From Candidatus Omnitrophota bacterium (lineage in GTDB: Bacteria; Omnitrophota; Gorgyraeia; Tantalellales; Tantalellaceae), in contig DAONGE010000006.1 of the NCBI GenBank assembly GCA_035403965.1, forward strand, positions 6,521 through 70,520: 64,000 bases of DNA, written 5' to 3'. Shown in pieces: positions 11,710-32,472 of this stretch; positions within the stretch are counted from its first letter, which is position 1, and each line of letters begins with the position of its first letter. A program made the translations under genes and the position numbers. Under the pieces are notes generated by a model. That model saw only the letters and a list, made by a program, of their open reading frames with translations. It was not told where the DNA came from and did not search any database.

Positions 11710-11742
11710 ATGCACTGAATCGGAAGACGGCTGGAAGGGAAT

Positions 11743-13020: not shown

Positions 13021-13029
13021 CGGATATTT

Positions 13030-14085
13030 ATGGCGAGATATAGTATGAAAGAATATTTTTTTCTTGTTATGACAGACCGTAAAACCGGGCCTGGTGACCG
13101 CGTTGCGGCTGGGGTCCTTTATTTCGTATCGATTCTTTATGCCATGGTGATGCGGTTCAGAGGCCGGATGTACAAAAGAGGTTTTTTTAAGGTAAGGAAG
13201 GCTGCGGTTCCGGTCATAAGTGTGGGGAATATTACACTTGGTGGTACCGGGAAAACGCCCTTTGTGGCCTTTCTCGCCGATAGATTGACGGCATTAGGCA
13301 TGAAACCGGCCGTTCTTACCAGAGGGTACGGCGACGATGAACACCGTATGCTGAGGGATGATATCCCCGATGTCCCGGTAGTAGTCGGCAGTAACCGTGT
13401 ACGAAACGCGGAAAAAGCCGTTCGTCTTGGGGCGAATATACTGATAATGGACGATGGCTTTCAACACAGACGTCTCGGGCGTGATCTTGATATCGTTCTT
13501 TTGGACAGTGCAAAGCCGTTCGGGAACGGATATGTATTTCCGCGGGGTACATTGCGTGAACCGCAGGACGCGATCCGCCGCGCGGATGTTGTTGTTCTTT
13601 CAAAATGCGATAAAATCCCGGAAGGTACGGATCTGAAAAAGATAGCCGGAAATTTGGATATCCGCCAGGGCGTGCCGGTCATCGCGATAAAATATAAAGC
13701 AAAATTTTTATCCGATGTAACGGGCGCGGTTTATCCGGCGGAAAACTTCAAAGGTAAAAAGGTGTGCATTGTTTCCGGGATAGCCGATCCTGAATATTTC
13801 GGATCGATGGTCGGGAAAACGGGTGCGATCATAGAGTCCGAAAGATATTTTATGGACCATCATGCGTATACACAGAACGATGTAAACGAGATATTGAGGA
13901 TGTGTGTGCGTAATGAGGCCGACGCCGTGATAGTAACGGCTAAAGATTATGTAAAACTCAGGAAGTTGGATCTTTCCGAGTTGGAAAGTAAATTGTTCGT
14001 TCTTAAAATCTCGGTAGACATAACACAGGGAGAGGAAGTATTCAGTGCTGGACTTAATAGCCTCATACATGCTTCGCGGTCTTAG
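13030..14085 (+). CDS. lpxK: Tetraacyldisaccharide 4'-kinase
   Basis: P-loop in the LpxK context (ISVGNITLGGTGKTPFVAFLADRL). 351 aa. Confidence 0.85.
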   Translation: MARYSMKEYFFLVMTDRKTGPGDRVAAGVLYFVSILYAMVMRFRGRMYKRGFFKVRKAAVPVISVGNITLGGTGKTPFVAFLADRLTALGMKPAVLTRGYGDDEHRMLRDDIPDVPVVVGSNRVRNAEKAVRLGANILIMDDGFQHRRLGRDLDIVLLDSAKPFGNGYVFPRGTLREPQDAIRRADVVVLSKCDKIPEGTDLKKIAGNLDIRQGVPVIAIKYKAKFLSDVTGAVYPAENFKGKKVCIVSGIADPEYFGSMVGKTGAIIESERYFMDHHAYTQNDVNEILRMCVRNEADAVIVTAKDYVKLRKLDLSELESKLFVLKISVDITQGEEVFSAGLNSLIHASRS

Positions 14086-15979
14086 TATATTGTTCTGTTA
14101 TATACCGATCCGCGCTGTTTTGGCGTATGGAAGGTTTTGCGGAAAGATCGCGTATTTGTTAAGTGGTAAGCGGTGCTGCGTGACGTATTCTAATCTTAAG
14201 GCTGCTTTTCACGGCGAAAAGTCCCCGGAGGAGATATCCGAGATAGCGAAAAAGGCGTATCTTTCGGTCGGAGAGGTCTTCGCGGAGCTTGTGGCAGTTC
14301 CACGTGTAGACGCACGGTATGTGGAGAAATATATAAAGATCAATAATTTTGAGCGCATACAGAAAGCAGCGTCGAACCCGAAAGGGATGATACTGGTCTC
14401 GGCGCATTTCGGGAACTGGGAGCTTAGCACAGTTGCGAGTGCGATCAAAGGATATCCGTTGTATATGCTCGCGCGTGATCAGAAAATGAAAAGGCTTAAC
14501 GAGCTACTGAACCTTCTTCGCGAAACCAAAGGCAATATGGTCGTTCGTAAAGGCGTGGATATAAAAAACATTTTCAGGCTCCTGAGGTCGGGGAAAAGCC
14601 TGGGTTTATTGGCCGATCAGAACGCGGGGGCTTCGGGTGAGTTAGTAGACTTTTTCGGCAGGCCCGCTTCAACTGCTACGGGGCCTTACCGTTTCGCCCA
14701 AAAGACGGGCGCGGTAGTGTTGCCGGCCTTTATACATCGCAAGAACGGTCCGTATCAGGAACTGTATCTGGAAGAGATAATGGAGATAAAAGAGGACGAA
14801 AGCATTATCCCATATATGGAACGGTACAACGCGCTTTTGGAAAAACACATAAGACAGTCGCCCTCTCAGTGGTTCTGGATGCATAAACGCTGGAAAAAGA
14901 CATCTGTTAAAAAAGTTATGGTCCTGGATGACGGGAAGAAAGGGCATTTAAAAGAATCGTTAGCGATACTTAAACAGATAGAGATATATCGCAAAGATGA
15001 AGGCTTCCAAGACAAGGACCTTGAGGTTCAGATAGTGAGTATCCGTTTTCGCGATAAGTTTAGGAAAGCCGTATTTAACGCTTTTTGCCCGCTGCTTACG
15101 TGGCGATTGGGGATGCATCGTAAAATGCTAGCCTGGGCGATGACGGCGGAAACGTACAAAGACGCTATCAATAGATACGCCGATGTCATCGTAAGCTGTG
15201 GTTCGGGGCTTTATGGCGTGAGTACCGCGCTAAAAATAGAGAATTATGCCAAGAATATAGCCGTACTGGATCCCGGAAAGATCAATTACGGGAAATTTAA
15301 CGTGATCGTGATGCCGAGGCATGACGTGAAGTCTTCTAAGGTCGCGGACAATATAGTTGTGACGGAACTCGCGCCTAACCTTATTGTGCCGTCAGAATTA
15401 TTGTCTTTACGCGTGTCGCTTGCGGGGAAAATGGTCTCCGGTAAGGTTAACGTGGGCGTTCTTATCGGCGGGGACAACGGTTTTTACGCGTTCACAGAAG
15501 ATATGGTTAGAAATATTATGGGTGGTATTGTGGATTTTTGCAGAAAAAAAGACGGTAAAATATTCGCGACGACATCACGTCGTACTCCGGAAAGTGCGGA
15601 AAATGCCGCGGCGGAGATGCTTTTAAAGGATAGTACCTGCGGTTTTTTCGTTTACGGTAAGAATGATACCGATGATAAAACCGTGGATAAGATATTGGCG
15701 CTTTCGGATATAGTGGTAGTATCGGGTGAAAGTATTTCCATGGTATCCGAAGCGGTTTCGTCCGGTAAACCGGTTGTCGTGTTCATGCCGGTCAAGAAGC
15801 ATGCAAAAACCAATAAGTACGAGGCGTACGTGAAACGGCTCGAAAATGAAGGTTATCTGACGCTTTTCTCCGGCGGCGACCTGACTGTGGTGCTGGATCG
15901 GGTGTCTGCTTCCGACGTGAAACGTAAGGCGATAGAGGATAACCGCAGAATATACGAAAAGATACATAAACTATTTTAG
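14045..15979 (+). CDS. lpxL: Lipid A late acyltransferase (LpxL/HtrB family) fused to a C-terminal ELM1/DUF1022-like domain
   Basis: The N-terminal ~290 aa carry LpxL-family motifs (HFGNWELS; LLADQNAG; FWMHKRWK). The C-terminal ~340 aa begin VMVLDDGKKGHLKESLAIL and end VVVSGESISMVSEAVSSGKPVVVF, which I recognise as the ELM1/DUF1022 pattern. Family assignment is from memory, not a search. The likely start is the internal Met at 14069. Confidence 0.7.
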   Translation: MLDLIASYMLRGLSILFCYIPIRAVLAYGRFCGKIAYLLSGKRCCVTYSNLKAAFHGEKSPEEISEIAKKAYLSVGEVFAELVAVPRVDARYVEKYIKINNFERIQKAASNPKGMILVSAHFGNWELSTVASAIKGYPLYMLARDQKMKRLNELLNLLRETKGNMVVRKGVDIKNIFRLLRSGKSLGLLADQNAGASGELVDFFGRPASTATGPYRFAQKTGAVVLPAFIHRKNGPYQELYLEEIMEIKEDESIIPYMERYNALLEKHIRQSPSQWFWMHKRWKKTSVKKVMVLDDGKKGHLKESLAILKQIEIYRKDEGFQDKDLEVQIVSIRFRDKFRKAVFNAFCPLLTWRLGMHRKMLAWAMTAETYKDAINRYADVIVSCGSGLYGVSTALKIENYAKNIAVLDPGKINYGKFNVIVMPRHDVKSSKVADNIVVTELAPNLIVPSELLSLRVSLAGKMVSGKVNVGVLIGGDNGFYAFTEDMVRNIMGGIVDFCRKKDGKIFATTSRRTPESAENAAAEMLLKDSTCGFFVYGKNDTDDKTVDKILALSDIVVVSGESISMVSEAVSSGKPVVVFMPVKKHAKTNKYEAYVKRLENEGYLTLFSGGDLTVVLDRVSASDVKRKAIEDNRRIYEKIHKLF

Positions 15980-15992
15980 ACAGGATGACGAT

Positions 15993-18074
15993 ATGAACGT
16001 ATTGCAGCTTTTACCTAAACTTGAACTTGGCGGCGTAGAACGGGGCACTATAGAAATGTCGCGTTACCTTACAATGAAAGGGCATAAAGCCGTGGTCGTC
16101 TCCGGTGGCGGCAGACTGGAAAAAAGCCTTACAGCGGCCGGTGCCAAGCATTATATGCTGCCTGTAGGCAAAAAGAACCCTCTTATCATGGTGTACTGTT
16201 ATTTCAAAATAAGGGCGATAATTAAAAAAGAAAATATTCATCTTGTGCACGGAAGAAGCCGGGTGCCTGCGCTTATCGGCTATTTCGCCGCGCGTGCCGA
16301 GAAAAGAACATTTATAACCACGGCGCACGGACATTATAAAAAACATCTTATCAGTAAAGTGATGGGGTGGGGGAAGATAGTGATCGTTGCCAGTAACTTT
16401 ATGGCACAGTACATGAAAGAGAATTTCGGGGTGCTTCCGGGGAAGATAGTAGTGATACCGAGAGGAGTGGATCTTGAAAGGTTTTCTTTTATACGTCCGG
16501 CCAAACGTGCGGATAAAGTGTTCCGCGTCGGAATGATAGCCAGGTTTACTCCGCTCAAGGGACACATGGATTTTCTGAAGGCGGTCGCGTATGTTTCCAG
16601 AAAGATGCCGAATCTGGAAGTTGTTCTGATGGGCGATAGGAATGAGGCCCGTCCGGATTATATTAAAAAAATGGATCTGGCGATAAAACGATATCTGATA
16701 GATAAAATTGTTAGATTTGTCGGTCCGGGTGAAAGCGTGCCAGAAGTATTACGCGGGCTGGATGTTCTTGTGTCAGCCTCACGCGAACAGGAGGCTTTTG
16801 GACGATCGATTATAGAGGCGCAGGCGCGAGGGGTTCCGGTAGTGGCGACACGTGTCGGCGGAGTTGTGGAAACAGTTGAGGACGGGGTCACGGGACTGTT
16901 GTGCGAAGCGTCGGATCCTTCGGATATGGCGAACAAAATAATGAAATACGCTTCCAGTCTGGAGTTTAGGCAGGAAATAGCCGAGAAAGCCCGGAAGAAT
17001 GTTGAAGAGCTTTATTCCGTGGAACGGTGTATGAGCCTTGAACTTGAGGCGTATCGCCGTGCATGTGAAATAAAGAAGATTCTGGTGTTTAAGATCAGTT
17101 CACTGGGAGACGTGATACTTTCAGTCCCGTCTTTACGTGCGATAAGGAGCCGTTTTGCAGACGCTTCAATAAAGGTACTGGTGGACGTTAAATTCAGGAA
17201 AGTCCTCGAGGGCTGTCCTTATGTCGACGAGATCATTACCTGCGATTTCAATGAAAGGGACGCCGGGGCCGGATTTTTTAAACTGGCAGATCGCTTGCGA
17301 GCCGAGGATTTTGATTTTTCGGTGGATCTTCAAAATAGCACGAAAAGCCATCTGCTCGCGTTTTTAGGTATGATACCGGAAAGGTTCGGATATAATAACG
17401 GCAAAATGAGTTTTCTTCTGAACCATAAAGCTGTTCTTCCCAAAAAAGCCATGGGACCGGTCGATCATCAGGCACAGTTATTATCGATCCTCGGGATAAA
17501 TATGGTGGAAAAATCTCTTGAACTTTGGCCCGGAGAAGAACATAAAAAATGGGCAAAGAATTTTCTTCAAGTGAACTGGCTGAACGAGGGACAGAAACTG
17601 GTAGGTATAAGTCTTTCGGCCAGTGCCAGATGGGGAACTAAAAATTGGGGGATGTCGCAGATACAGTCGCTTGCGGATATGCTGGGGAAAGACGATATAC
17701 GTGTGGTTTTTATCGGTACTCCGAGCGATATCCCTGCCGCTGAAAAACTTACAAAGAAGAACAATCTTAAAGCTATTAACGCCGTGGGGAAAACAAATAT
17801 ATCACAGCTTATCGCGCTTATTGCGGAATGTTCCGTTGTTGTGAGCGGCGATTCGTCGCCTATGCATATCGCCGCCGGTGTCGGGGTGCCGTTCGTAGGT
17901 CTTTTCGGTCCGACCGATCCTGACAGACACGCTCCGCCTGCTGTGAAATGCAGGATAATCGGGAAAAAGGCGAAATGTTCGCCATGTTACAAAGGAGAAT
18001 GCAATAACGGCCATAGATGTATGTCGGGTATCCGGCCACAGGAAGTTTATAACGCGGTGAAAGATCTGATGTGA
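15993..18074 (+). CDS. Bidomain glycosyltransferase: N-terminal GT4 (GT-B, WaaG-like) fused to a C-terminal GT9 heptosyltransferase
   Basis: N-terminus has GGVERGTIEMSRYL and an EX7E-like region (GRSIIEAQARGVPVV) typical of GT4. From ~aa 350 comes KKILVFKISSLGDVILSVPSLRAIRSRF (the GT9 N-terminus), and the protein ends with a Cys-rich GT9 C-terminus. Confidence 0.75.
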   Translation: MNVLQLLPKLELGGVERGTIEMSRYLTMKGHKAVVVSGGGRLEKSLTAAGAKHYMLPVGKKNPLIMVYCYFKIRAIIKKENIHLVHGRSRVPALIGYFAARAEKRTFITTAHGHYKKHLISKVMGWGKIVIVASNFMAQYMKENFGVLPGKIVVIPRGVDLERFSFIRPAKRADKVFRVGMIARFTPLKGHMDFLKAVAYVSRKMPNLEVVLMGDRNEARPDYIKKMDLAIKRYLIDKIVRFVGPGESVPEVLRGLDVLVSASREQEAFGRSIIEAQARGVPVVATRVGGVVETVEDGVTGLLCEASDPSDMANKIMKYASSLEFRQEIAEKARKNVEELYSVERCMSLELEAYRRACEIKKILVFKISSLGDVILSVPSLRAIRSRFADASIKVLVDVKFRKVLEGCPYVDEIITCDFNERDAGAGFFKLADRLRAEDFDFSVDLQNSTKSHLLAFLGMIPERFGYNNGKMSFLLNHKAVLPKKAMGPVDHQAQLLSILGINMVEKSLELWPGEEHKKWAKNFLQVNWLNEGQKLVGISLSASARWGTKNWGMSQIQSLADMLGKDDIRVVFIGTPSDIPAAEKLTKKNNLKAINAVGKTNISQLIALIAECSVVVSGDSSPMHIAAGVGVPFVGLFGPTDPDRHAPPAVKCRIIGKKAKCSPCYKGECNNGHRCMSGIRPQEVYNAVKDLM

Positions 18075-19210
18075 AAGCTCTGATCATAACGACACATTTA
18101 AATATCGGCGGGATAGGCCTGTATACGGTTAATCTCGCTAAATATCTCGGGCCACTGGGCGTCGAATGCTCGGTGCTGTCGTCGGGAGGGGATCTAGAGC
18201 CAGTTCTGGGAGATATAGGGATAAAACATTATAAGTTCGATATAAAGACTAAATCTGAATTCGGCGTAAAAATGTTCCGATCCCTGCCGGGGATAATTGA
18301 TCTGATCAAAAAGGAGAAATTCGATCTGGTGCATGCTCAGACAAGAGTCTCGCAGATCATCGCATGTATGTCGGGGGTGTTTACCGGTGTTCCGGTCATA
18401 TGTACCTGTCACGGTTTTTTTAACAGCAGAAGGTTGTCCAGAAAATTATTTCCATGCTGGGGAAAAAGGACGATAGCTATCAGTAACGGTGTTAAAGAAC
18501 ATCTGATGAGAGATTTCCGTGTGCCGGAAGAAAAAATCGACATGATATTGAACGGTATTGAGACCGACAACTTTTTAAATATAAGTGCGGAAAAGGATCA
18601 TGCGCTTATGAAAGAACTTGATATTCCATCTGACGCGTTGGTGGTCGGAACCGTGGGAAGACTTTCGGAAGTAAAAGGGCAGAAATATCTGATCAAAGCG
18701 TTCAAGGGGATCATCGGACAATTCCCCAAGGCGAGGCTTCTCCTTGTTGGCGAGGGTCCGGAAGAAAAGGAACTGCGATGTCTGGTGGATGACCTTTCGA
18801 TCTCTGAATATGTGATCTTCGAGGGGCGCATGAGAAAAAAACTTCCGGTATATCTCAGACTGATGGATGTTTTTTGTCTTCCTTCGGTGATGGAAGGCGT
18901 GGGGTTGGCGCTTATGGAGGCGATGGCTTCTGGATGCGCGTGTCTGGCGTCAAAGACAGGTGGGATCCCGGAAGTCGTTGATGATGGCGATAACGGCATA
19001 CTTGTTACGCCCGAAGATGAAACCGCGATCCAAAAAGCATTGGTATGTCTCTTGGCTGATCCTAAATTACGCGCGACGCTTGGCGAGAGGGCGCGGGAAA
19101 AAGCTATGGAAGAGTTCTCTATAAAGGACAACATAGAAAAAACTCGGTCTTCGTACGAGAAATTACTCGCTGAAAACAAAAAAAAGAACGGATGTGTGCA
19201 TGGCGAATAA
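18071..19210 (+). CDS. Glycosyltransferase family 4 (GT-B)
   Basis: Motifs KALIITTHLNIGGIGLY and EGVGLALMEAMASGCACLASKTGGIPEVV (EX7E). Start overlaps the upstream stop. Confidence 0.8.
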   Translation: MKALIITTHLNIGGIGLYTVNLAKYLGPLGVECSVLSSGGDLEPVLGDIGIKHYKFDIKTKSEFGVKMFRSLPGIIDLIKKEKFDLVHAQTRVSQIIACMSGVFTGVPVICTCHGFFNSRRLSRKLFPCWGKRTIAISNGVKEHLMRDFRVPEEKIDMILNGIETDNFLNISAEKDHALMKELDIPSDALVVGTVGRLSEVKGQKYLIKAFKGIIGQFPKARLLLVGEGPEEKELRCLVDDLSISEYVIFEGRMRKKLPVYLRLMDVFCLPSVMEGVGLALMEAMASGCACLASKTGGIPEVVDDGDNGILVTPEDETAIQKALVCLLADPKLRATLGERAREKAMEEFSIKDNIEKTRSSYEKLLAENKKKNGCVHGE

Positions 19211-20234
19211 AATTTCCGAACCGAAAAAAATATTGATATTCGAACTCAACTGGATGGGAGATATACTTTTTTCGGAACCGCTCATAAGGGCGATAAAGGA
19301 GACGTATCCGGAATCGTACATAACGTGCGCTATGGTGCCTAGATACGTCGATCTTTTGGCGAATAATCCGTGGGTGGACGAAATAATTGAACTTTCTGAT
19401 AACAGGTCTTTTTTGTCTTTTTTTGAAAAAATAGGTTTTTTGAACGTGATCAGGAAAAAACATTTTGATACCTGTATTTTTCTTAAACCTTCTCGGACAA
19501 AGGTCATTATGGCCATGCTGTCCGGAATAAAAGACAGGATCGGGTTTATCTCCAGCAAAAGAACGTTCTTTACGCGGGTCGTTATGGCGGATGATAGCTG
19601 TCACCGAGTGGAACAGATATTGTCTCTGGCGGGAGCGATGGACGCCCCTTTTCCGCGCAGTCATCATTATGAATATTTTGTCACGGACGAGGACATGAAA
19701 AAAATGGAAGTTACGCTGGCTTCTTCTGGCTATAAAGGCGGGGATATTATCGTGCTGAACCCGGGTGGGAATTGGGGCGCTAAACGATGGCCTCAGAAGT
19801 ATTTCGCGGAACTGGCGGAGATGCTGATAAAAAAATATCCCGGCGCGGAGATAGTGATATCCGGCGCAAAAAAAGACATTGGTCTTGCGGGGGCTATACT
19901 AAAGGACACCGGATGTGCCAGGTGTATGTCCCTGGCGGGAAAGACACATATAAAAGAACTCGCCGCACTTTTTAAAAAGGCAAAACTTGTGATAAGTTCC
20001 GATTCCGGCCCGATGCATCTGGCGTCGGCGGTGGGATCTCCTACGCTCGCGATATTCGGCCCGACGTCGGCTAAGTTGACGGGACCGTATGGCAAGGGAA
20101 AGAACAAGGTCTTGCAGCGTTATGTTGAATGCGCCGTGCCGTGTTATAAAGAAAAATGTGACAAGGATTATGTGTGCATAAAACAGATCTCCGCGCGTGA
20201 GGTTTTTAACGCGGCGTGCGAGATGATGGAGTGA
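19194..20234 (+). CDS. ADP-heptose:LPS heptosyltransferase (GT9), paralog 1
   Basis: ILIFELNWMGDILFSEPLIRAIKETYP N-terminus. GPMHLASAVGSPTLAIFGPT. C-terminal Cys cluster. Confidence 0.8.
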   Translation: MCMANKISEPKKILIFELNWMGDILFSEPLIRAIKETYPESYITCAMVPRYVDLLANNPWVDEIIELSDNRSFLSFFEKIGFLNVIRKKHFDTCIFLKPSRTKVIMAMLSGIKDRIGFISSKRTFFTRVVMADDSCHRVEQILSLAGAMDAPFPRSHHYEYFVTDEDMKKMEVTLASSGYKGGDIIVLNPGGNWGAKRWPQKYFAELAEMLIKKYPGAEIVISGAKKDIGLAGAILKDTGCARCMSLAGKTHIKELAALFKKAKLVISSDSGPMHLASAVGSPTLAIFGPTSAKLTGPYGKGKNKVLQRYVECAVPCYKEKCDKDYVCIKQISAREVFNAACEMME

Positions 20235-20440
20235 GTTAGGAGTTGGGAATAGATTGAAAAAGTAAATGATGTCATTCCCGCATGTATTAAGCGGGAATCT
20301 ATACGATTAAAGTAGATTGTTTTGATGTTATGGATGCCCGATAAAAGCGTTCGGGCATGACAGGGATGAGAAATTCGAGATTCGATGATAACGTAGGGGC
20401 GGGGTCTCCCCGCCCAAAACGGACAGAGATTCGATGATAA
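20235..20440 (+). promoter_or_regulatory. Structured ~200-nt leader: three hairpins and a duplicated 15-nt start region
   Basis: Hairpin 1: ATTCCCGC-N10-GCGGGAAT. Hairpin 2: ATGCCCG-N11-CGGGCAT. Hairpin 3: GGGGCGGGG-TCT-CCCCGCCC. The 15-mer GAGATTCGATGATAA occurs twice, flanking hairpin 3. The first copy gives ATG-ATA-ACG-TAG (a 3-codon ORF); the second contains the real ATG of the next GT9 gene. Confidence 0.35.
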
Positions 20441-21450
20441 TGGAAAAAATGATAGACAGGACAAAAATAAGATCCATTCTGCTGGTATCGCTCGCCAATC
20501 TGGGCGATATCGTGCTTACCACCCCGGTTCTGGATAAACTAATATTTGAATTCCCGGGTGCCGCGATCGACGTTATGTGCGGCCCGGCGGGGGAAGAAGT
20601 ATTTGCCAAAAATCCTCGTGTCAGAGAAGTTATTATAAATCGTAAACATCTTCCGATAGCCGAACGGATGAAGCTTACCGCGTATTTAAGACGTAAAAAA
20701 TATGATATGGCGATCGATCTAAAAAATACGGCATTGCCTTTTCTTGCCGGTGCGAGGTATAGAACCGGTATTTTTAAACCCAAGATGCCATCCCGTACTC
20801 ATAAGATGGACGAACATCTTGTTGCTCTTCAATGTTTCGGAATAAGTGGCGCAGGCGCGTCTTTTTGTGTTACAGCGTCGGCAGACGATAAAAGATTGGT
20901 TGATGCCATGCTGTCGGCCTGCAAAGGCAAAAAAGTAGCGGTGATAAGCCCCGGATCGAAAAGCCATCTAAAAAGATGGAGTGCTGAAAAATTTGCGGAG
21001 TTGTCTGACCTGTTGATAAAAGAACACGGTTGCGAGGTTTTTGTGATCGGCGACGCCGCTGACAAAGAAGTCGTGAAAAGAATGAAAACTTTTGCGCGTT
21101 ATCCTGTGCAGGATCTTTGTTGTGGCACGAATATCGGCATGGTATATGAATTGATGAGGCAGGCGGATATCGTTGTTACAAATGATAGCGCGCCGCTTCA
21201 CATAGCCAGCGCCGCGAACGCGCCGGTTGTGGCGATATTCGGTCCGTCAGACGAGAAAAAATACGGGCCGGTATCTGAGTCGTGCGCTGTCGTTGCGCCG
21301 GATCGCTCCTGCCGTCCGTGTTGTAACGCATTGTGCAAAAAAGGTCCGGCCGAAGGTTGTATCCCGGACGTGACCGTCGAGGATGTCTATAAAACGGCGA
21401 AAGAACTGTTAGGGAGAGCTTGTGGGGAAAATAACCATAAAAATAGGTGA
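20434..21450 (+). CDS. ADP-heptose:LPS heptosyltransferase (GT9), paralog 2
   Basis: [26 protein letters not shown]-terminus. [21 protein letters not shown]-terminal Cys cluster. Confidence 0.8.
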
Positions 21451-21943
21451 CATCACGCAGGAAAGCGTTGATGTAATAGTGAACGCTGCGAATGCCTCAT
21501 TGCTGGGAGGCGGCGGAGTCGATGGCGCGATACATCGTGCGGCAGGGCCTGCCGTTCTTAATGAGTGCAGAAAGTTCGGTGGGTGTAAAACCGGCGAGGC
21601 TGTTATGACCGGTGCCGGAAAACTGAAGGCAAAACGGATTGTGCATACACCTGGTCCCGTCTGGACCGGTGGAGAACACGGCGAACCGTTTCTTCTTGAT
21701 TGCTGTTACAAGAATAGTTTTCTTTTGGCCCGCAAAGCGGGATTCAAGACTATAGCGTTTCCCGCGATAAGTACCGGTGTATACGGCTATCCTGTGGACA
21801 AAGCTGCTAAAATAGCTATTTCCGTCGGGATGAAACAAATTGAACATTTTGACGAGATAATATATGTCTGTTTTTCCGAGGATGTTCTAGAGGGGTATCA
21901 AAAGGTATATGCGAAATTATCTACCCCGAGGAAAAAGAAATGA
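21422..21943 (+). CDS. Macro domain protein (MacroD/YmdB-like ADP-ribose-binding / O-acetyl-ADP-ribose deacetylase family)
   Basis: GTG start 5 nt after an AGGGAGAG RBS. Motifs [28 protein letters not shown] and [14 protein letters not shown] are diagnostic of Macro domains. 173 aa. Overlaps the upstream GT9 by 29 nt and shares an ATGA junction with the downstream GT9. Confidence 0.8.
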
Positions 21944-22980
21944 CGCCGATCCCCAGACGGATATTAATAGCCAGGACAGACCGCATAGGTGACGTCGTTC
22001 TTTCCACGCCGGTGATCCGGTTTTTGCGCAAAAAATATCCCGAGGCTTTTATTGCGTTCATGTTAAGACCGTACACGGCTGATATAGTGAGGAACGATCC
22101 GAATCTCAACGATGTCGTGATCTATGACAAAGACAAGGAACAGAAAAGCTTTTTTTCGACCATACGGTTCGCTTTAAAACTCAGAAAATACCGGTTTGAT
22201 ATGGCGATAGCCCTGCATCCTAACTTTCGCACACATATTATTTTTTTTATGGCTGGGATACCAGTGCGGATCGGATATGATAAAAAATGCGGATGGCTTT
22301 TGACGCAAAAGATACCGCATAAAAAGCAGGAGGGGGACCGGCATGAGAGCGAATATAATTTTGATCTTTTGTCCGGAGCTGGTATAGATGTTTCCGGAGC
22401 TGATATGAAACCGTATCTTTACAGAAGCCGGGAAAACGGTCTTATGGTGGACAAGATACTTAAGGAGAGTGGTGTTTCGGCTAGCATGATCGCCGTTCAT
22501 GCCGGAGCGAGTTGTCCGTCAAAACGGTGGCCGGCCGAAAGATTCCGCGAAGTTTGTGAACTATTGATAAAAAAAACGGGTAGTGATATAGTGCTTATCG
22601 GAGGGCCTGATGCCGTGCGATATTCCGATATCATAACTGAGTCCGGGAACGCAAGGATATTTGATCTTACCGATACCTTGCGCCTTGGAGAAGTCACTGA
22701 GCTGTTATCGCGTGCCAAAGTCTTGATCTCCAATGATTCCGGTCCGGTGCATATCGCCGCGGCCGTGAATACCCCGGTAGTGTCTATTTTTGGACGTAAA
22801 TCTCCCGGTCTTTCGCCTAAAAGATGGGGACCGGTCGGTGAGAAAAATATAATACTGCACAAGGATGTCGGGTGTGTGAAGTGCCTTGCACATGAGTGTG
22901 AGAAAAATTTTCAATGTCTTTTGGCTATCAGCGCGGATGATGTCGTATCCGCTACGGAGCGCTTGATATCTGAACTGTAG
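21940..22980 (+). CDS. ADP-heptose:LPS heptosyltransferase (GT9), paralog 3
   Basis: [29 protein letters not shown]-terminus. [19 protein letters not shown]-terminal [15 protein letters not shown]. Confidence 0.8.
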
Positions 22981-23021
22981 AGAAAAGGTTTAGATGGTAA
23001 AAACAAAAACAAGGAGGACAT

Positions 23022-23777
23022 ATGAAAAAAGTGATATGTTGTATTCTCGCATTATTTCTTGCAGCCGCGCCGTGTTTCGCGGAAGGGGCACAGGAAACCG
23101 CTCAAACCCAGATCCCTCTTATAGGACAAGTGGCTCCGGCGTTTACAGCGGAAACTACCCAGGGAACCATAAACTTTCCGGACGATTTTAAAGGCAGTTG
23201 GGTGATATTATTCAGTCATCCCGCAGATTTTACGCCTGTTTGTACCACTGAATTTATGACATTCGCCACAATGAAACCGGAGTTCGAAGCGTTGAATTGT
23301 AAATTGGTCGGACTTTCTATCGACAGCATTTACAGCCATATTGCGTGGCTCCGGACTATACAGGAAAAAATTAAATACAAAGGTATGGAGAATGTCAAAG
23401 TCGATTTTCCGCTCATCGCCGACATAAAAATGGAGGTTGCGAAAAAATACGGAATGTTACAGGCCAGCGCCAGCGACACTAAAGCCGTGCGCGCGGTGTT
23501 CTTTATCGATCCGGAATCGAAAATACGCGCGATAATCTATTATCCGCTTTCCAACGGAAGAAATTTCCAGGAAATAAAACGATTGCTTATCGCGATGCAG
23601 ACCAGTGATGCCGAAAAGGTGGCGACTCCCGCCGACTGGCAACCCGGCGACGATGTGATCGTCCCACCTCCGGGAAGCTGTGGTACCGCGAAAGACAGGG
23701 TCGATAACGCCGAAAAAGAAGGCTATAAATGCCTCGACTGGTTCATATGTTTTAAATCGCTGAAAGCGAAAGAATAA
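23022..23777 (+). CDS. Secreted 1-Cys/Prx6-type peroxiredoxin with a C-terminal Cys-containing extension
   Basis: Signal peptide MKKVICCILALFLAAAPCFA. Peroxidatic motif HPADFTPVCTTE. ~40 extra C-terminal residues containing CGTAK...C...C. Confidence 0.85.
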   Translation: MKKVICCILALFLAAAPCFAEGAQETAQTQIPLIGQVAPAFTAETTQGTINFPDDFKGSWVILFSHPADFTPVCTTEFMTFATMKPEFEALNCKLVGLSIDSIYSHIAWLRTIQEKIKYKGMENVKVDFPLIADIKMEVAKKYGMLQASASDTKAVRAVFFIDPESKIRAIIYYPLSNGRNFQEIKRLLIAMQTSDAEKVATPADWQPGDDVIVPPPGSCGTAKDRVDNAEKEGYKCLDWFICFKSLKAKE

Positions 23778-23801
23778 TCTGTTTTACACATAGTACGGAT
23801 A

Positions 23802-23848
23802 AATGGGCCGTTTCCGAGGAGCGATTGGAGCGGCCCATTTTTTATTAT
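23802..23848 (+). terminator. Rho-independent terminator after the peroxiredoxin gene
   Basis: AATGGGCCG ... CGGCCCATT stem followed by TTTTTTATTATTT. Confidence 0.55.
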
Positions 23849-23941
23849 TTTCGCAGGCCAATAGTTAAACTATAAAAAGCTTGAAAAAGACAGAAAATAT
23901 GCTAATTTCGTATAAAAATTAGAACAGTGAATAACATTATG

Positions 23942-23950
23942 TGGTATAAT
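23942..23950 (+). promoter_or_regulatory. Extended -10 promoter element (TGgTATAAT) upstream of trxA
   Basis: TGGTATAAT lies 47 nt before the trxA ATG. A GGGAG RBS follows. The -35 is weak (gaacag). Confidence 0.4.
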
Positions 23951-23996
23951 TATCGGGCTGTTAGACTATCAAAAATAACAGTAAGGGAGAAAGGCC

Positions 23997-24317
23997 ATGG
24001 AAATTACGGTAAATGACGGGAATTTTGATAGCGAAGTCATCAAAGAAAGTAAATTGCCGGTACTTGTCGATTTCTGGGCCGAATGGTGCGGGCCGTGCAG
24101 GATGATAGCGCCGATGATCGAAGAGATCGCCCGTGAATATCAGGGGAAGGTCAAGGTTTGCAAGATAAACGTGGATGAGGCTCCGAAAACCGCTTCTGAA
24201 CTGGGAGTTATGAGTATTCCTACCATCGCGATATTCAAGAACGGCAAGGTCGTTAACAAGATAGTCGGGGCTGTTCCCAAACAGGAGATTGTTTCCAGGA
24301 TAAATACGTCGATCTGA
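23997..24317 (+). CDS. trxA: Thioredoxin
   Basis: WCGPC active site ([13 protein letters not shown]). 106 aa. Confidence 0.92.
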
Positions 24318-24357
24318 AAATAATAAAGAGCGCGTTGTTTTAAAGAGGGGGAAAGAA

Positions 24358-25365
24358 TTGGACAAGTATAAGTTTTCGACATTTGAAAAATATGTAAATA
24401 AGTTTTCAAAAAGAAAAATACTCGTCGTCGGGGATCTTTTACTGGATCAATATATTTGGGGCGAAGTATCGCGAATATCTCCGGAGGCTCCTGTGCCGGT
24501 TGTTTGGGTAAAGCGCGAAGATTACATGCCGGGCGGGGCCAGCAACGTTGCGAACAATCTCGCGAAACTTGGAGCGGATGTCACCCTTGTCGGAGTGGTA
24601 GGGAATGACGAACGCGGGGAGCTCCTGAAAAGCAAGTTGGAAGAGCGCGGTATAGATATTTCGGGTGTGTTCACGGACGATACACGTCCTACAAGCCTAA
24701 AGACACGTGTGATAGCGCATCATCAGCAGGTGGTAAGAATAGACCGAGAAAGCGTGGATACGGTCAATCACAGCCTGTCCGCGAAGATCGCCGAGTTCAT
24801 AACTAACCGCGTTAAAGAAACGGACGGCGTTATAGTTGAGGATTATGACAAGGGCGTTATAACTCCGGTTCTTTTACAGGAGATCGTACCGGCCGCTAGG
24901 AAACATTGCAGGATTATTTCCGTCGACCCGAAAGAAAGCCATTTCCCGTATTACAAGAATGTGACGGTCATCACGCCGAACAACCACGAAGCCTCAAGGG
25001 CTGTCGGGTTTGAATTGAAGACCGAGGAAGATATAATACGTGCAGGTCAGAAAATAATAAATAAACTCAAAACGGATCATATGCTGATTACGCTCGGGGA
25101 GCGAGGTATGATGCTGTGCGAAAAGAACGGGGTATCTCACAGAATCCCTACTATTGCTCAGGAAGTGTTCGATGTGTCCGGAGCGGGTGATACCGTTATC
25201 TCGGTCTATACTCTGGCGTACAGTTCCGGAGCCACGCCGATCATATCGGCGCATATAGCCAACTGCGCCGCCGGAATAGTCGTAGGAAAGGTTGGAGCCG
25301 CCGTTGTGAGTCAAGACGAGCTCCTTGAAAGACTTAAACTAGAGATCGGGAGGGCTAAACGGTGA
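24358..25365 (+). CDS. hldE: D-glycero-beta-D-manno-heptose-7-phosphate kinase (RfaE domain I only, PfkB family)
   Basis: TTG start. ILVVGDLLLDQYIWGEVSRISPEAPVPVV matches HldE domain I. PfkB motifs GAGD and DTxGAGD-like. 335 aa; no adenylyltransferase domain II is attached. Confidence 0.8.
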   Translation: MDKYKFSTFEKYVNKFSKRKILVVGDLLLDQYIWGEVSRISPEAPVPVVWVKREDYMPGGASNVANNLAKLGADVTLVGVVGNDERGELLKSKLEERGIDISGVFTDDTRPTSLKTRVIAHHQQVVRIDRESVDTVNHSLSAKIAEFITNRVKETDGVIVEDYDKGVITPVLLQEIVPAARKHCRIISVDPKESHFPYYKNVTVITPNNHEASRAVGFELKTEEDIIRAGQKIINKLKTDHMLITLGERGMMLCEKNGVSHRIPTIAQEVFDVSGAGDTVISVYTLAYSSGATPIISAHIANCAAGIVVGKVGAAVVSQDELLERLKLEIGRAKR

Positions 25366-26129
25366 AATGCGTAGCTGTTATACCTGCCAGATGGCAGTCA
25401 TCGCGTTTTAAGGGAAAAGTTCTCGCCGAGATAAACGGCAAACCGATCATACAGCATGTGTGGGAAAGAATAAAAAAATGCCAGCGCGTGGACGATGTGC
25501 TGGTAGCGGTGGATAAGGAGAAAGTTTTTAAAGCCGTCGAATCTTTCGGCGGTAAAGCGGTATATACCTCTCCCGAACACGCTTCGGGGAGCGACCGTAT
25601 CGCCGAAGTAATGAAGTCCGTCAGCGCCGATATCGTCGTGAACGTTCAGGGGGACGAACCGCTCGTGCAACCGTCGATGATAGACGACCTTGTGCGTGTG
25701 TTCGAATACGAAAAGAATATACAAATGGCTACCGTGATAAAAAGAGTGAACAAAAAATCGGATATCGACGATCCTAACGTTGTGAAGGTCGTTGTGGATT
25801 GTCGAGGATTCGCTCTATATTTTTCACGAAGTCCTATACCGCACATACGTGCGGACGTAAGGAGCGCGATCACAAGCGAGGAAGAGTTGTGCGGACGTTA
25901 TTTTAAACATATAGGCCTATATGCGTATACAAGGGATTTTTTGTTGACGTTTACCAATCTTCCAAAGTCGTCGATCGAGCAGGATGAAAAGCTGGAACAG
26001 CTGCGAGCGTTAGCACATGGGTTTAAAATAAAAACGGTGGAAACAAGGTTCGATACGGTAGGGGTAGATACCCCAGAAGATCTTGAGAACGTGCGCGTGC
26101 TTATGACAGCCGCCAATAATAACGGGTAA
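25362..26129 (+). CDS. kdsB: 3-deoxy-manno-octulosonate cytidylyltransferase (CMP-Kdo synthetase)
   Basis: Typical KdsB N-terminus (VIPARWQSSRFKGKVLAEINGKPIIQHV). 255 aa. Confidence 0.9.
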   Translation: MKCVAVIPARWQSSRFKGKVLAEINGKPIIQHVWERIKKCQRVDDVLVAVDKEKVFKAVESFGGKAVYTSPEHASGSDRIAEVMKSVSADIVVNVQGDEPLVQPSMIDDLVRVFEYEKNIQMATVIKRVNKKSDIDDPNVVKVVVDCRGFALYFSRSPIPHIRADVRSAITSEEELCGRYFKHIGLYAYTRDFLLTFTNLPKSSIEQDEKLEQLRALAHGFKIKTVETRFDTVGVDTPEDLENVRVLMTAANNNG

Positions 26130-26133
26130 AACT

Positions 26134-26955
26134 ATGAAGACAAAAAAAATATCGGTGGATAAATTTTATATCGGAGGCGGTTCTCCGATAGCCCTGATCG
26201 CCGGGCCGTGTGTTATTGAATCCGAGAAAAACGCTTATTATCACGCGAAGGAAATAAAAAAAATCGCTGCTAAAGTGGGTTTTCGTTATATCTTTAAGGC
26301 GAGCTACGACAAAGCTAATAGAAGCTCGATAGCATCGTTCAGAGGACCGGGATTGGCAGAGGGGCTTGAAATCCTGGGGAAAATACGCAAAGACCTGAAA
26401 GTTCCCGTGCTTAGCGATGTCCACGCGGAGGATCAGGTCGACGCGGCAGCGGAAGTTCTTGACGTTATTCAGATCCCGGCGTTTTTGTGCCGTCAGACCG
26501 ATATACTTGTCAAAGCCGCGCGGAGTGGCCGGGTCGTGAACGTGAAGAAGGGGCAATTCATGGCGCCCCATGAAATGGGGAATGTCGTATCCAAGATAGA
26601 ATCCGCCGGATGCCGTAAGATACTGCTTACCGAAAGAGGTACATCTTTCGGGTACAATACGTTGATAAACGATTTTAAATGTATACCGATAATGAAAAAA
26701 ACCGGCTATCCGGTAGTATATGACGCGACGCATTCAGTGCAGCGTCCGGCTGGCAAAGGCACTTCAAGCGGCGGGGATTCCGAATTCATCGTTCCGCTCT
26801 CTATGGCGGCGGTGGCATGCGGCGCGGACGCGCTGTTCCTGGAAGTGCATGAAAACCCGGCTAAAGCTTTGAGCGACGGGCCAAATATGCTTAAACTGTC
26901 AGATCTGTATAAATTCTTGAAACTTATACAAAAAATAGAGAAGGCGGTAAAGTGA
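26134..26955 (+). CDS. kdsA: 2-dehydro-3-deoxyphosphooctonate aldolase (Kdo-8-P synthase)
   Basis: DAHP-synthase-I family motifs (LIAGPCVIES; KASYDKANRSS). 273 aa. Confidence 0.9.
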   Translation: MKTKKISVDKFYIGGGSPIALIAGPCVIESEKNAYYHAKEIKKIAAKVGFRYIFKASYDKANRSSIASFRGPGLAEGLEILGKIRKDLKVPVLSDVHAEDQVDAAAEVLDVIQIPAFLCRQTDILVKAARSGRVVNVKKGQFMAPHEMGNVVSKIESAGCRKILLTERGTSFGYNTLINDFKCIPIMKKTGYPVVYDATHSVQRPAGKGTSSGGDSEFIVPLSMAAVACGADALFLEVHENPAKALSDGPNMLKLSDLYKFLKLIQKIEKAVK

Positions 26956-26956
26956 A

Positions 26957-27916
26957 ATGAGTTTTTCCAGCGCGAAAAAAGTTTTGATGAACGAAGGCAA
27001 GGCGATATTAAAGATCGCCGAAAAAATGGACAAAGATTTTGACCGCATGATAGCGCTTTTGTCCGGGACAAAGGGCCGTGTTGTCGTCACAGGTATGGGT
27101 AAGCCCGGTTTTATAGCGCAAAAAGTATCCGCGACGCTTTCGTCCACGGGTACTCCCTCGCTTTATCTCCATCCGGCAGAAGCTCTGCACGGAGACCTCG
27201 GCAGGGTCACGCGTGATGATGTGATAATAGCGTTTTCTAACAGCGGAGAGACGGAAGAGATAGTAAGGCTGCTCCCGATAATAAAGAAGATCGGTGCGAG
27301 AATAATATCTATCACCGGCAATAAAAAATCCACGCTAGCTAAAAACAGCGATTTTGTCATCGACAGCGCCGTGGACCGTGAGGCGTGCCCTTTGAACCTG
27401 GCACCGACTACTTCCACTACGGTGATGCTTGCCATCGGCGACGCGATCAGCGTTGCTCTTCTTGAAAAAAAGAATTTTCAGCCGAAGGATTTTGCGCTTT
27501 TTCATCCGGGCGGGGCGCTCGGGAAAAGACTGCTTCTTCGCGCCGGTGACATTATGCGTCCGCTGGCTAAAACGGCGGTGGTGTCTTCGGACGAGTTGGT
27601 CAAGGATGTTCTTCTTAAGATTACAAAGGTACGCGCCGGAAGCGCGAGCATCGTTGATAAAAAAGGAAAACTGATCGGTATCTTCACTGACGGAGATCTG
27701 CGGCGTCATTTTGAAAAAGGGGAAAAACTTTTAGGACTGACGGTAGGCGTGGTCATGACGAAAGGGCCATGTACGATAATGGCCGATAAACTTGCGGCTG
27801 ACGCGTTCGATATGCTTCGCAATAAAAAGATCGACGAGATCCCGGTCGTGGATGAAAAAGGAAAACTTGTAGGGGTCCTGGACGTCCAGGATATCCTGAA
27901 CGAAGGGCTTGTGTAA
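26957..27916 (+). CDS. kdsD: Arabinose-5-phosphate isomerase (SIS + tandem CBS)
   Basis: SIS domain (VVVTGMGKPGFIAQKVSATLSSTGTPS) followed by two CBS domains. 319 aa. Confidence 0.88.
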   Translation: MSFSSAKKVLMNEGKAILKIAEKMDKDFDRMIALLSGTKGRVVVTGMGKPGFIAQKVSATLSSTGTPSLYLHPAEALHGDLGRVTRDDVIIAFSNSGETEEIVRLLPIIKKIGARIISITGNKKSTLAKNSDFVIDSAVDREACPLNLAPTTSTTVMLAIGDAISVALLEKKNFQPKDFALFHPGGALGKRLLLRAGDIMRPLAKTAVVSSDELVKDVLLKITKVRAGSASIVDKKGKLIGIFTDGDLRRHFEKGEKLLGLTVGVVMTKGPCTIMADKLAADAFDMLRNKKIDEIPVVDEKGKLVGVLDVQDILNEGLV

Positions 27917-27921
27917 AGAAT

Positions 27922-28470
27922 ATGAAAGATCCGTTAAAGAAATATACCAAAGAGATAGTAAGAAAAGCCGCGGCCATTAAGCTGCTTCTCTTAGACGTGG
28001 ACGGTGTTTTGACCGACGGACGCTTGATATACGGCAATAGCGGCGAGGAAATGAAGAATTTTGACGTCAATGACGGGCTCGGGATCTTTATGCTGAAAAA
28101 GGCGGGGATAAAACGCGCGCTTCTTACGGCGAAGGCGACGAAGGCCGTGAAGATACGGGCGAAAGAGCTTCAGATAGAAAAGGTGTACGGCGGATTTCAC
28201 TATAAACTGGAAGTATTTGAAAAAGTTCAGAAGGATTTTAAAGTTAAACCTTCTGAAATATGTTTTGTCGGAGACGATCTTATCGATGTGCCGGTTCTGA
28301 AAAGATGCGGGCTCGCGGTATGCCCGCCGAACGCTGCTCGCGAAGTGAAAGAATACGCCGATCTTATCACGGATAAAAAAGGCGGGCGCGGCGCGGTGCG
28401 CGAACTGTGCGACCTGATATTGCGCGCGACCGGAAAATGGGAAGAAGCCACGGAAAGATATTTTGAGTAA
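27922..28470 (+). CDS. kdsC: Kdo-8-phosphate phosphatase (HAD family)
   Basis: HAD motif I (LLLLDVDGVLTDGRLIY) and later GDDLIDV. 182 aa. Confidence 0.8.
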   Translation: MKDPLKKYTKEIVRKAAAIKLLLLDVDGVLTDGRLIYGNSGEEMKNFDVNDGLGIFMLKKAGIKRALLTAKATKAVKIRAKELQIEKVYGGFHYKLEVFEKVQKDFKVKPSEICFVGDDLIDVPVLKRCGLAVCPPNAAREVKEYADLITDKKGGRGAVRELCDLILRATGKWEEATERYFE

Positions 28471-28478
28471 AGGAAAAC

Positions 28479-28853: not shown

Positions 28854-28856
28854 AAA

Positions 28857-29546: not shown

Positions 29547-29548
29547 AC

Positions 29549-30268: not shown

Positions 30269-30287
30269 AGCCGGGTAGGAGATAAAA

Positions 30288-32457: not shown

Positions 32458-32472
32458 CTTAAAAGGAGAAAC

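Follow-up and report, generated by a model that had tools for sequence, protein, structure and literature searches.

A YmdB/MacroD-type macro domain gene in the LPS core operon of one Omnitrophota lineage

Known macro genes that are embedded in bacterial operons act as erasers of ADP-ribosylation. In E. coli the macro gene ymdB overlaps the gene clsC by 59 nt and sits among curli and osmoregulated-glucan genes. It is described that clsC clones with the adjacent ymdB give more ClsC, by an unknown mechanism (review, PMC8027125). No paper in the searched literature ties macro domains to ADP-heptose or to heptosyltransferases, and the Lipocone comparative-genomics paper, which mentions Omnitrophota and LPS, contains nothing on macro domains or ADP-ribose.

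The macro gene reported here is encoded by a Candidatus Omnitrophota MAG, of which a stretch of 64 kb, called the window in the following, was analysed. It is located between two genes for family-9 glycosyltransferases (GT9) within a large cluster of LPS genes:

11743..33195, + strand: LPS supercluster holding the macro gene, about 21 kb (Pfam and NCBIfam assignments)
20434..21450, + strand: GT9b, upstream family-9 glycosyltransferase, 338 aa (PF01075, E=3.2e-34)
21412..21416, + strand: Shine-Dalgarno-like GGGAG, read off the sequence, 5 nt before the GTG start
21422..21943, + strand: macro gene, YmdB/MacroD-type, 173 aa, GTG start
21422..21450, + strand: overlap of the macro 5' end with the GT9b 3' end, 29 nt (ORF coordinates)
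21940..21943, + strand: ATGA stop/start junction from the macro gene to GT9c (ORF coordinates and sequence)
21940..22980, + strand: GT9c, downstream family-9 glycosyltransferase, 346 aa (PF01075, E=3.7e-41)

The position between two GT9 genes, the 29-nt overlap and the ATGA junction are thus as originally predicted, and both flanking proteins match PF01075. GT9c also passes the cutoff of the NCBIfam model TIGR02195 with 154 bits, while GT9b stays marginally below it (134.1 bits, cutoff 134.6). The GTG start of the macro gene is backed by the GGGAG motif and by an MGK(I) N-terminus which is kept in the orthologs.

The supercluster begins with WaaA, LpxK, LpxL-ELM1, GT4-GT9, GT4, GT9a, GT9b, Macro and GT9c, and continues with Prx, Trx, HldE-kinase, KdsB, KdsA, KdsD, KdsC, QueC, QueE, LpxL2, LptC-A and LptB. 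Non-LPS genes, namely Prx, Trx, QueC, QueE and Macro, are scattered within it. The presumed heptose-pathway setting is indeed given, since the HldE kinase in the same cluster is a heptose-7-phosphate kinase domain (TIGR02198, 392 bits).

The macro gene is co-oriented with the LPS pathway genes, tightly joined to them (-29 nt and -4 nt), and probably co-transcribed with GT9b and GT9c. Co-translation in one operon had been deduced from these two junctions. The operon-type placement stands, but the junctions are uninformative with respect to a dedicated role, because 15 of the 53 same-strand neighbour pairs in the window overlap and because the spacing varies among the orthologs. A spacing of 20 nt or less is found for 36 of the 53 pairs, and pairs of unrelated genes are equally tight, among them TopA/XerC (-4), AroK-HD/DprA (-4), IspG/ProS (-35) and ScpB/PheA (-23).

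In a scan of the region of 11-30 kb, promoter and terminator sites were as numerous as expected from shuffled sequence, with no site bracketing the macro gene, and the window contained neither a match to Rfam (gathering threshold) nor a tRNA. Several antisense ORFs at this locus (20328-20783, 20719-20967, 21497-21847, 22174-22500 and 22497-22862) do not match any Pfam family and were treated as spurious. The GC content of the macro gene (0.475, the same as that of the neighbour genes) and its GC3 match those of the neighbours, and recent acquisition by horizontal transfer was rejected on these grounds.

The assignment of the 173-aa protein to the MacroD/YmdB-like proteins agrees with the profile matches. 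It matches the Pfam family Macro (PF01661) along the whole model (positions 1-118 of 118, E=5.3e-43), and scores 210.2 bits against the NCBIfam model NF001664 (O-acetyl-ADP-ribose deacetylase, cutoff 200), while it falls under the cutoffs of the sibling equivalog models. E. coli YmdB is 54% identical over the full length. The AlphaFold model (pLDDT 89.4) has the three-layer alpha/beta/alpha Macro fold; the leading Foldseek matches are YmdB and MacroD2 (TM 0.87-0.90), and the best PDB match is YmdB (1SPV/5CB3, TM 0.87, rmsd 1.9 A). Three ligand and catalytic motifs were located:

21446..21457, + strand: GDIT motif, aa 9-12, with the adenine-contacting Asp10 (motif search of the protein)
21491..21523, + strand: catalytic MacroD signature N24-x6-GGVD34, aligned with N25...D35 of YmdB
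21776..21787, + strand: GVYG loop, aa 119-122, the diphosphate/distal-ribose loop (alignment and motif)

Residues D10, I11 and T12 are unchanged in 26 homologs, across which the GVYG (G[VIA][YF]G) and GDIT positions as a whole are invariant or nearly so, and the N24-x6-GGVD34 signature (Nx6GG[VLI]D) is invariant among the homologs. Y121 of the GVYG loop aligns with a tyrosine of YmdB that is replaced by alanine in the 5CMS chain.

The order GT9b-Macro-GT9c (context A) is kept in eight diverged relatives besides the window, so that the adjacency is no isolated case but has been inherited. These relatives are so diverged that their synonymous sites are saturated. The spacing between GT9b and the macro gene ranges from -29 to +131 nt when the window is included and from -4 to +131 nt in the orthologs, so that the 29-nt overlap is not kept. 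Between the macro gene and GT9c the orthologs show -4 to +314 nt, and more than 2 kb at the extreme. At locus L011 three inserted genes part the macro gene from GT9c, with the macro gene still attached to GT9b. An exact 8-mer peptide pattern scan with the single macro protein revealed 7 loci, none of them a close Omnitrophota relative with context A.

Homologs that are just as close occur at other places as well. In four cases (context B, 62-71% identity) the macro gene is convergent with lpxB in the order lpxB-GFO/IDH-msbA; the genes upstream differ from case to case and lpxB is constant. A homolog with 67% identity, P0110, lies between genes for a phosphoglycerate mutase and a Na/H exchanger and overlaps the former by 20 nt (one case). 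The homologs from Lentisphaerae and Acidobacteriota have no LPS neighbours. With homologs beside lpxB and beside the phosphoglycerate mutase gene, the observation that was to refute the original prediction, a macro gene at unrelated loci in close relatives, has largely been made.

Seen from the partner gene, the arrangement is clade-limited. A metagenome scan anchored on GT9c gave 74 informative orthologous clusters, of which only four carry a macro gene between GT9b and GT9c. In the 70 clusters without it GT9b either abuts GT9c (34) or is fused to it in a single polypeptide of about 680 aa (36), and no macro remnants were found there by tblastn (E<=1). The macro gene is thus not a constant part of the orthologous operon. 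In the GT9c tree all macro-bearing loci form one clade, with the macro-less L020 nested within and L023 basal, so that the macro gene is restricted to a single clade, inside which it was lost at least once. The predicted neighbourhood of macro and GT9 genes is accordingly conserved among diverged relatives of this clade, but is absent from most of the orthologous clusters.

The sequences of the operon copies do not indicate any specialisation. Operon copies, non-operon homologs and E. coli YmdB have the same GDIT, Nx6GGVD, HTPGPVW and GVYGYP motifs, and a comparison of context A with context B, Lentisphaerae and E. coli copies revealed no operon-specific substitution in the ligand motifs. The sole difference seen between the copies of contexts A and B is the N-terminus (MGK vs. 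MIT). Identity among the homologs is 62-72% for the macro protein and 53-57% for the GT9c orthologs; the macro protein is better conserved than its GT9 neighbours, which indicates purifying selection on its canonical sequence.

The macro gene is hence an ordinary-looking member of a known family, whose placement in the LPS operon is limited to one Omnitrophota lineage. We regard it as rather probable that it encodes a housekeeping ADP-ribose hydrolase which was inserted into the LPS operon of one clade. Judged by homology, the protein would be a canonical YmdB/MacroD-type hydrolase acting on ADP-ribose derivatives. The predicted reactions are the deacetylation of O-acetyl-ADP-ribose and/or the removal of mono-ADP-ribose from acidic residues, with the putative Asn24/Asp34 dyad activating water and the GVYG loop contributing. 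The gene was presumably inserted, in the ancestor of the clade, between the adjoining GT9 genes of a far older LPS core operon. It has since been inherited in place, and its transcription together with the GT9 genes is probable. That start and stop codons overlap would then be due to the extreme packing of genes on one strand in this genome and not to a dedicated partnership. The macro gene would most likely be a housekeeping passenger of the operon, as would the thioredoxin, peroxiredoxin and queC/queE genes there, and we infer that it has no LPS-specific role.

Several observations stand against such a passenger. The insertion has been retained despite wide divergence of the loci (53-57% identity of GT9c), including L011. 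By our own estimate the chance is a few percent for each of the two conserved LPS-adjacent placements of the one macro lineage, which makes them unlikely for a random gene. E. coli ymdB, too, overlaps an envelope-lipid gene. Finally, the 64-kb window lacks a sirtuin or ADP-ribosyltransferase that would supply the substrate of the hydrolase.

Alternatively, the YmdB-type protein might influence how abundant or how active the envelope-lipid or LPS enzymes encoded next to it are, without acting on ADP-heptose, be it by an ADP-ribose-directed activity or by protein-protein or RNase III-mediated regulation. Both conserved placements, between GT9b and GT9c and next to lpxB-GFO/IDH-msbA, adjoin LPS genes, and the constancy of lpxB among varying upstream genes in context B points in the same direction, as do the overlap of ymdB with clsC and the reported increase of ClsC by ymdB in E. 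coli (PMC8027125). By analogy, an envelope link like that of ymdB and clsC is possible. However, 70 of the 74 orthologous GT9 clusters do without a macro gene in their midst, and the homologs of P0110, L001 and the Acidobacteriota lack envelope neighbours. In context B co-transcription of the macro gene with lpxB is excluded by their convergent orientation, and the LPS cluster of the window also carries the clearly unrelated Trx, Prx and queC/E genes. The placement statistics are weak because just one placement is independent of ascertainment. Taken together, we consider a modulating role of this kind rather unlikely. The more general proposal appears more doubtful still. It holds that macrodomain proteins of the YmdB type repeatedly serve the assembly of envelope glycolipids or lipids as accessory factors, a function overlooked until now, and would tune the enzymes concerned, conceivably via an ADP-sugar or ADP-ribosyl intermediate.

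By analogy to the operon-embedded erasers, the macro protein might also reverse the ADP-ribosylation of a specific target, for example of an LPS enzyme, or a modification set by the toxin of an invader. MacroD-type enzymes, with MacroD1/2 as relatives in the PDB, are established mono-ADP-ribosyl hydrolases. The surroundings of the gene do not fit: genes for ADP-ribosyltransferases, sirtuins or toxins neither adjoin the macro gene in three contexts nor occur within the 64-kb window, and the PADLOC defence models gave no match to the macro gene and its neighbours. A dedicated ADP-ribosylation circuit is therefore improbable here.

The YmdB-like proteins comprise roughly 23,600 clusters, and we also looked for fusion partners of the macro domain among the best 150 family representatives (local phmmer and Pfam). 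Ten long single-macro proteins were scanned with Pfam: four carry an ADP-ribosylglycohydrolase domain (one of them together with PARG), one carries ankyrin repeats, and one an integrase and an SseB domain. A GT9 or other LPS segment was found in none of the 150. No protein combining PF01075 and PF01661 was present among the best 120 matches to a chimera query, a weak result, as the macro-only proteins expected there were missing as well.

The least probable alternative is the one from which the study started, namely that ADP-heptose, which the GT9 heptosyltransferases on either side use as sugar donor, is bound, proofread or hydrolysed by the macro protein. The location between GT9 genes, the heptose-7-phosphate kinase domain encoded in the same operon, the retention of the arrangement inside one clade and the binding of ADP moieties by macro pockets are in its favour, and a direct exclusion was not found in the searched literature. 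In ADP-heptose the sugar is attached to the beta-phosphate via the anomeric C1, in ADP-ribose via C5''. Because of this linkage, the catalytic water of a MacroD enzyme would, as we infer, face no scissile bond. ADP-glucose, which shares the C1-phosphate linkage with ADP-heptose, binds poorly or without specificity to the MacroD-like Mac1 of SARS-CoV-2: it was bound like plain ADP, without the enthalpy specific for ADP-ribose (bioRxiv 10.1101/2020.03.31.014639), and in a second study its inhibition was undetectable and its steric bulk was judged unfavourable (PMC13408504). Together with an undiverged pocket whose motifs equal those of non-operon homologs and YmdB, macro-less heptosyltransferase clusters in the majority, the confinement of the gene to one clade inside which it was lost again, homologs at other loci, overlaps that are the genomic norm and the lack of GT9-Macro fusions among the proteins searched, this leaves ADP-heptose handling, as opposed to ADP-ribose chemistry, unsupported by the placement and very improbable.

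Were the macro protein really to participate in LPS core assembly, or to sense or hydrolyse ADP-heptose, the ligands of this much-studied domain would be extended by a new class, and the unexplained YmdB-ClsC effect in E. coli would become easier to approach. The evidence instead favours a standard ADP-ribose hydrolase gene in a permissive, tightly packed operon of one uncultivated lineage. In genomes of the Omnitrophota type, overlapping start and stop codons and same-strand adjacency say little about function, and conservation should be checked from the side of the partner gene too and not just from that of the gene of interest.

Compared with known systems, the Omnitrophota protein shares the subfamily signature (Nx6GG[VLI]D and G[VIA][YF]G) with human MacroD1 and MacroD2 and the MacroD of Oceanobacillus iheyensis, to which it is 42-47% identical in structural alignment (TM 0.83-0.90); it differs from them as a stand-alone protein of 173 aa without N-terminal extensions. 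In SirTM-macro (with GcvH-L) and DarT-DarG, too, a macro gene lies within an operon with a functional theme, but there the substrate is made by an ADP-ribosyltransferase or sirtuin from the operon itself, and no such gene is present here. The macro-less LPS operons of other Omnitrophota are collinear in LpxL-ELM1, GT4-GT9, GT4, GT9a, GT9b, GT9c, HldE-kinase and KdsB/A/D/C; besides the macro gene they mostly lack Trx, and GT9b and GT9c are fused in 36 of them. E. coli YmdB, with the same catalytic and ligand motifs, is the closest structural counterpart, and in ymdB-clsC a YmdB gene likewise overlaps the next gene, one for an envelope-lipid enzyme. The partner there is a cardiolipin synthase of the PLD type, whereas the gene downstream of the Omnitrophota macro gene encodes an LPS-core GT9 glycosyltransferase and no PLD family protein, and the macro gene has further LPS genes of a long operon on both sides.

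The original prediction placed a macro-domain gene between two genes for GT9 glycosyltransferases, and this observation is confirmed by the ORF coordinates together with the PF01661 and PF01075 assignments:

20434-21450, + strand, upstream GT9 gene (GT9b, PF01075)
21422-21943, + strand, macro gene, GTG start, 173 aa
21940-22980, + strand, downstream GT9 gene (GT9c, PF01075)

The Pfam Macro model is covered completely by the 173-aa protein (E=5.3e-43), which also scores 210.2 bits with NCBIfam NF001664 (O-acetyl-ADP-ribose deacetylase), above the curated cutoff of 200, and is 100% identical to one protein of a Candidatus Omnitrophota MAG. The GTG start is sound, because a Shine-Dalgarno sequence (GGGAG) lies 5 nt 5' of it and the N-terminus MGK(I) is common to the macro orthologs; the 29-nt overlap with GT9b and the ATGA junction with GT9c follow from that start. 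GT9c, as well as a third GT9 gene lying further upstream, scores above the cutoff of TIGR02195 (heptosyltransferase II). The antisense ORFs across the macro locus could be assigned to no family.

The macro protein adds a new member to the YmdB/MacroD family and carries the following motifs:

aa 9-12, GDIT
aa 24-34, MacroD signature N24-x6-GGVD34
aa 38, H38
aa 75-81, HTPGPVW
aa 119-122, GVYG

These positions are invariant or nearly so in 26 homologs from all contexts. An alignment of copies located between GT9b and GT9c (context A), copies convergent with lpxB (context B), Lentisphaerae and E. coli sequences revealed no ligand-motif residue peculiar to the copies in the operon, and the context A and B groups were seen to differ at the N-terminus only. 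The AlphaFold model (pLDDT 89.4) superposes on human MacroD2 with a TM score of 0.90. Among homologs the macro proteins are 62-72% identical versus 53-57% for their GT9 neighbours, and this higher conservation argues for purifying selection on the canonical sequence. Two operon-embedded macro proteins (L101 5001-5507, L024 220-723) depart from GVYGYP in the otherwise invariant catalytic loop, with GIYAYP and GIYRYP there, and in L101 RADIT replaces GDIT; these substitutions hint at relaxed constraint or possibly altered activity in some lineages.

The macro family comprises 23,617 clusters at 50% identity (E<=1e-3), and none of its best 150 representatives contains a GT9 or other LPS segment. 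Ten long single-macro representatives were assigned by Pfam: four carry an ADP-ribosylglycohydrolase domain (one of them also a PARG domain), one ankyrin repeats, one an integrase and an SseB domain, and four Macro alone. A chimera query returned no GT9-Macro fusion, which is a weak result, as its list oddly lacked known macro-only matches.

The macro gene is part of an LPS supercluster of about 21 kb with every gene on the + strand, in the order WaaA, LpxK, LpxL-ELM1 fusion, GT4-GT9 fusion, GT4, GT9a, GT9b, Macro, GT9c, peroxiredoxin, thioredoxin, HldE kinase domain, KdsB, KdsA, KdsD, KdsC, QueC, QueE, second LpxL, LptC-LptA fusion, LptB. The non-LPS genes scattered through this order mean that the cluster already has several genes without an LPS role. 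Further features of the window are:

6091-7569, + strand, shikimate kinase and HD-domain phosphohydrolase fusion, 492 aa, its stop overlapping the dprA start by 4 nt
14045-15979, + strand, lipid A late acyltransferase (PF03279) and ELM1-type (PF06258) domains in a single 644-aa protein, a fusion kept in related loci (L008, L011, L022 and others)
15993-18074, + strand, two-domain GT4-GT9 glycosyltransferase, 693 aa, conserved at the head of the cluster's glycosyltransferases in almost every related locus
23022-24317, + strand, peroxiredoxin and thioredoxin genes, with GT9c on one side and the HldE kinase gene on the other
24358-25365, + strand, HldE gene (335 aa, TTG start), heptose-7-phosphate kinase domain only (TIGR02198, 392 bits)
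28857-30268, + strand, queuosine genes queC and queE (radical SAM), separating kdsC from the block of second lpxL, lptC-lptA and lptB within the supercluster
31552-32457, + strand, 301-aa protein with LptC and LptA/LptD_N domains, an apparent LptC-LptA fusion
38687-39481, 264-aa ORF between serA and purA, no Pfam family at E<=1e-3
47480-48553, proS to rimP, about 1 kb, the sole long low-density stretch of the window, no Rfam and no tRNA match
47587-47943, 118-aa ORF in that stretch, PilZ-like motifs (RRKYPRF ... DVSRGG) seen by eye
62712-63311, DUF2148 gene, the sole family-assigned gene off the + strand

An adenylyltransferase domain, GmhA, GmhB and HldD were not found in the 64-kb window, and the remaining ADP-heptose pathway must therefore be encoded elsewhere. 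At their C-terminus the GT9 domains bear a motif of four cysteines, CxxC-x(2-6)-C-x(4-9)-C (GT9c C312-C326, 22873-22917; GT9b aa 293-309; GT4-GT9 aa 662-676), which may be a metal site. It is present in 85 of 86 GT9c orthologs, with C312, C315, H318, C320 and C326 invariant, and the thioredoxin and peroxiredoxin genes lie immediately 3' of it in the macro-bearing clade.

All but one of the approximately 57 family-assigned genes of the window are located on the + strand and very tightly packed, with 15 of 53 adjacent pairs overlapping and 36 of 53 spaced by 20 nt or less; this one-strand packing is extreme. Window 1-64000 contains neither a tRNA nor an Rfam match at the gathering threshold. The tight or overlapping pairs include the unrelated TopA/XerC, AroK-HD/DprA, IspG/ProS and ScpB/PheA, and overlapping start and stop codons are thus normal in this genome and no proof of a functional partnership.

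Contexts were retrieved for 15 distinct macro proteins, each at least 58% identical to the window protein; every relative compared is a metagenome contig. Nine (window, P0007, P0014, P0036, P0048, P0062, P0112, P0061, P0092) belong to context A and share the collinear operon with GT9b-Macro-GT9c. Since the GT9c orthologs beside them share only 53-57% identity, the adjacency reflects real, long-term retention. The upstream junction ranges from -29 to +131 nt and the downstream one from -4 to +314 nt, and in L011 three genes are inserted between macro and GT9c, so that the tight coupling itself is not conserved. The four context B proteins, P0003 (71%), P0069 (66%), P0068 (62%) and P0056 (67%; full-length MAFFT identity), are encoded convergently with lpxB, behind which come genes for a GFO/IDH oxidoreductase and an MsbA-like ABC transporter, with variable upstream genes (DUF362-Fer4, DUF2621):

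L006 (P0068), 6683-12455
L103, 7001-11665
L012
L099

In this placement rpsB-tsf is found beside the MsbA-like transporter; L006 is labelled Deltaproteobacteria, yet its arrangement is Omnitrophota-type. A further macro gene (P0110, 67%) shares 20 nt with the gene of an archaeal-type phosphoglycerate mutase and is located ahead of a Na/H exchanger gene; LPS genes are absent within 7 kb. A Lentisphaerae homolog (58%) sits after an XerC-like integrase, and beside the more distant homologs from Acidobacteriota and Aigarchaeota there are no LPS genes. Of the 120 closest homologs in the database, 76 are context-A-like, 28 context-B-like and 16 ambiguous. A general tie of macro to GT9 is largely contradicted by the homologs of 62-71% identity that adjoin lpxB or phosphoglycerate mutase instead.

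A search anchored on GT9c (query: alignment of seven orthologs) gave a sample without bias toward macro. The best 80 of at least 405 confirmed relatives, all metagenome loci, were annotated with the window's own proteins, and a tblastn search at E<=1 detected no macro remnants in the loci without the gene. Macro lies between GT9b and GT9c in four of these 80 loci, a GT9b-type gene directly abuts GT9c in 34, both are fused to a single ORF of about 680 aa in 36 (within L026-L098, e.g. L045 6987-9017 and L058 6912-9017, each with two GT9 domains by Pfam), and six are uninformative on macro. Thus the arrangement is retained in diverged relatives, but 70 of the 74 informative operons in this best-80 sample work without an embedded macro. 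Macro was inserted exactly at a boundary which in the fused sister lineages is a domain linker.

Neighbour joining of 88 GT9c sequences (without bootstrap) puts all macro-bearing loci into one clade. L020, which lacks macro, is nested inside this clade as the sister of L101, and L023, likewise without macro, is basal to it. The simplest history is one insertion into an older operon, then vertical inheritance with at least one loss. The thioredoxin gene 3' of GT9c is largely confined to this clade (sole outside case L068), which suggests that the operon gathered unrelated insertions in that lineage. A recent macro insertion is ruled out by GC and GC3 values equal to those of the neighbours.

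The main rival, that this YmdB-type macro protein is an envelope-accessory factor, is unlikely, though it draws on two different conserved placements adjoining LPS genes and on E. coli, where ymdB overlaps clsC by 59 nt and ClsC levels are reported to rise, by an unknown mechanism, when clsC clones include ymdB (review, PMC8027125). However, the lpxB placement alone does not depend on the way the finding was chosen, the genes there are convergent, and a third placement has nothing to do with the envelope; an envelope role is therefore a rival and not the leading explanation. ADP-ribosyltransferase, sirtuin or defence-system genes were beside macro in none of the contexts examined.

In ADP-heptose the anomeric carbon of the sugar carries the link to the beta-phosphate, while the distal ribose of ADP-ribose is joined through C5'' and the catalytic water of MacroD faces C1''/C2''; this linkage argument combines established chemistry with our own inference. 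The closest tested analogue, ADP-glucose, bound the SARS-CoV-2 macrodomain, a relative but a separate protein, about like ADP and without the ADP-ribose-specific enthalpy (bioRxiv 10.1101/2020.03.31.014639), and in a later study it gave no detectable inhibition and distal steric bulk was judged unfavourable (PMC13408504). This indirect evidence agrees with the unchanged pocket of the window protein. The literature search found no paper pairing macrodomains with ADP-heptose or heptosyltransferases. That macro binds, proofreads or hydrolyses ADP-heptose, as the original prediction read from its placement, is thus not supported and highly improbable, given a canonical pocket with ligand motifs unchanged between operon and other copies, and 70 of 74 informative operons (best 80 of at least 405) without macro.

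The best-supported mechanism is probably the usual hydrolysis of ADP-ribose esters, for which no LPS tie is demonstrated, the gene having presumably entered the LPS core operon by a lineage-specific insertion and then passed down within one Omnitrophota clade. The protein here is like E. coli YmdB both in sequence, with 54% identity over the full length, and in fold (1SPV/5CB3; TM 0.87, rmsd 1.9 A).
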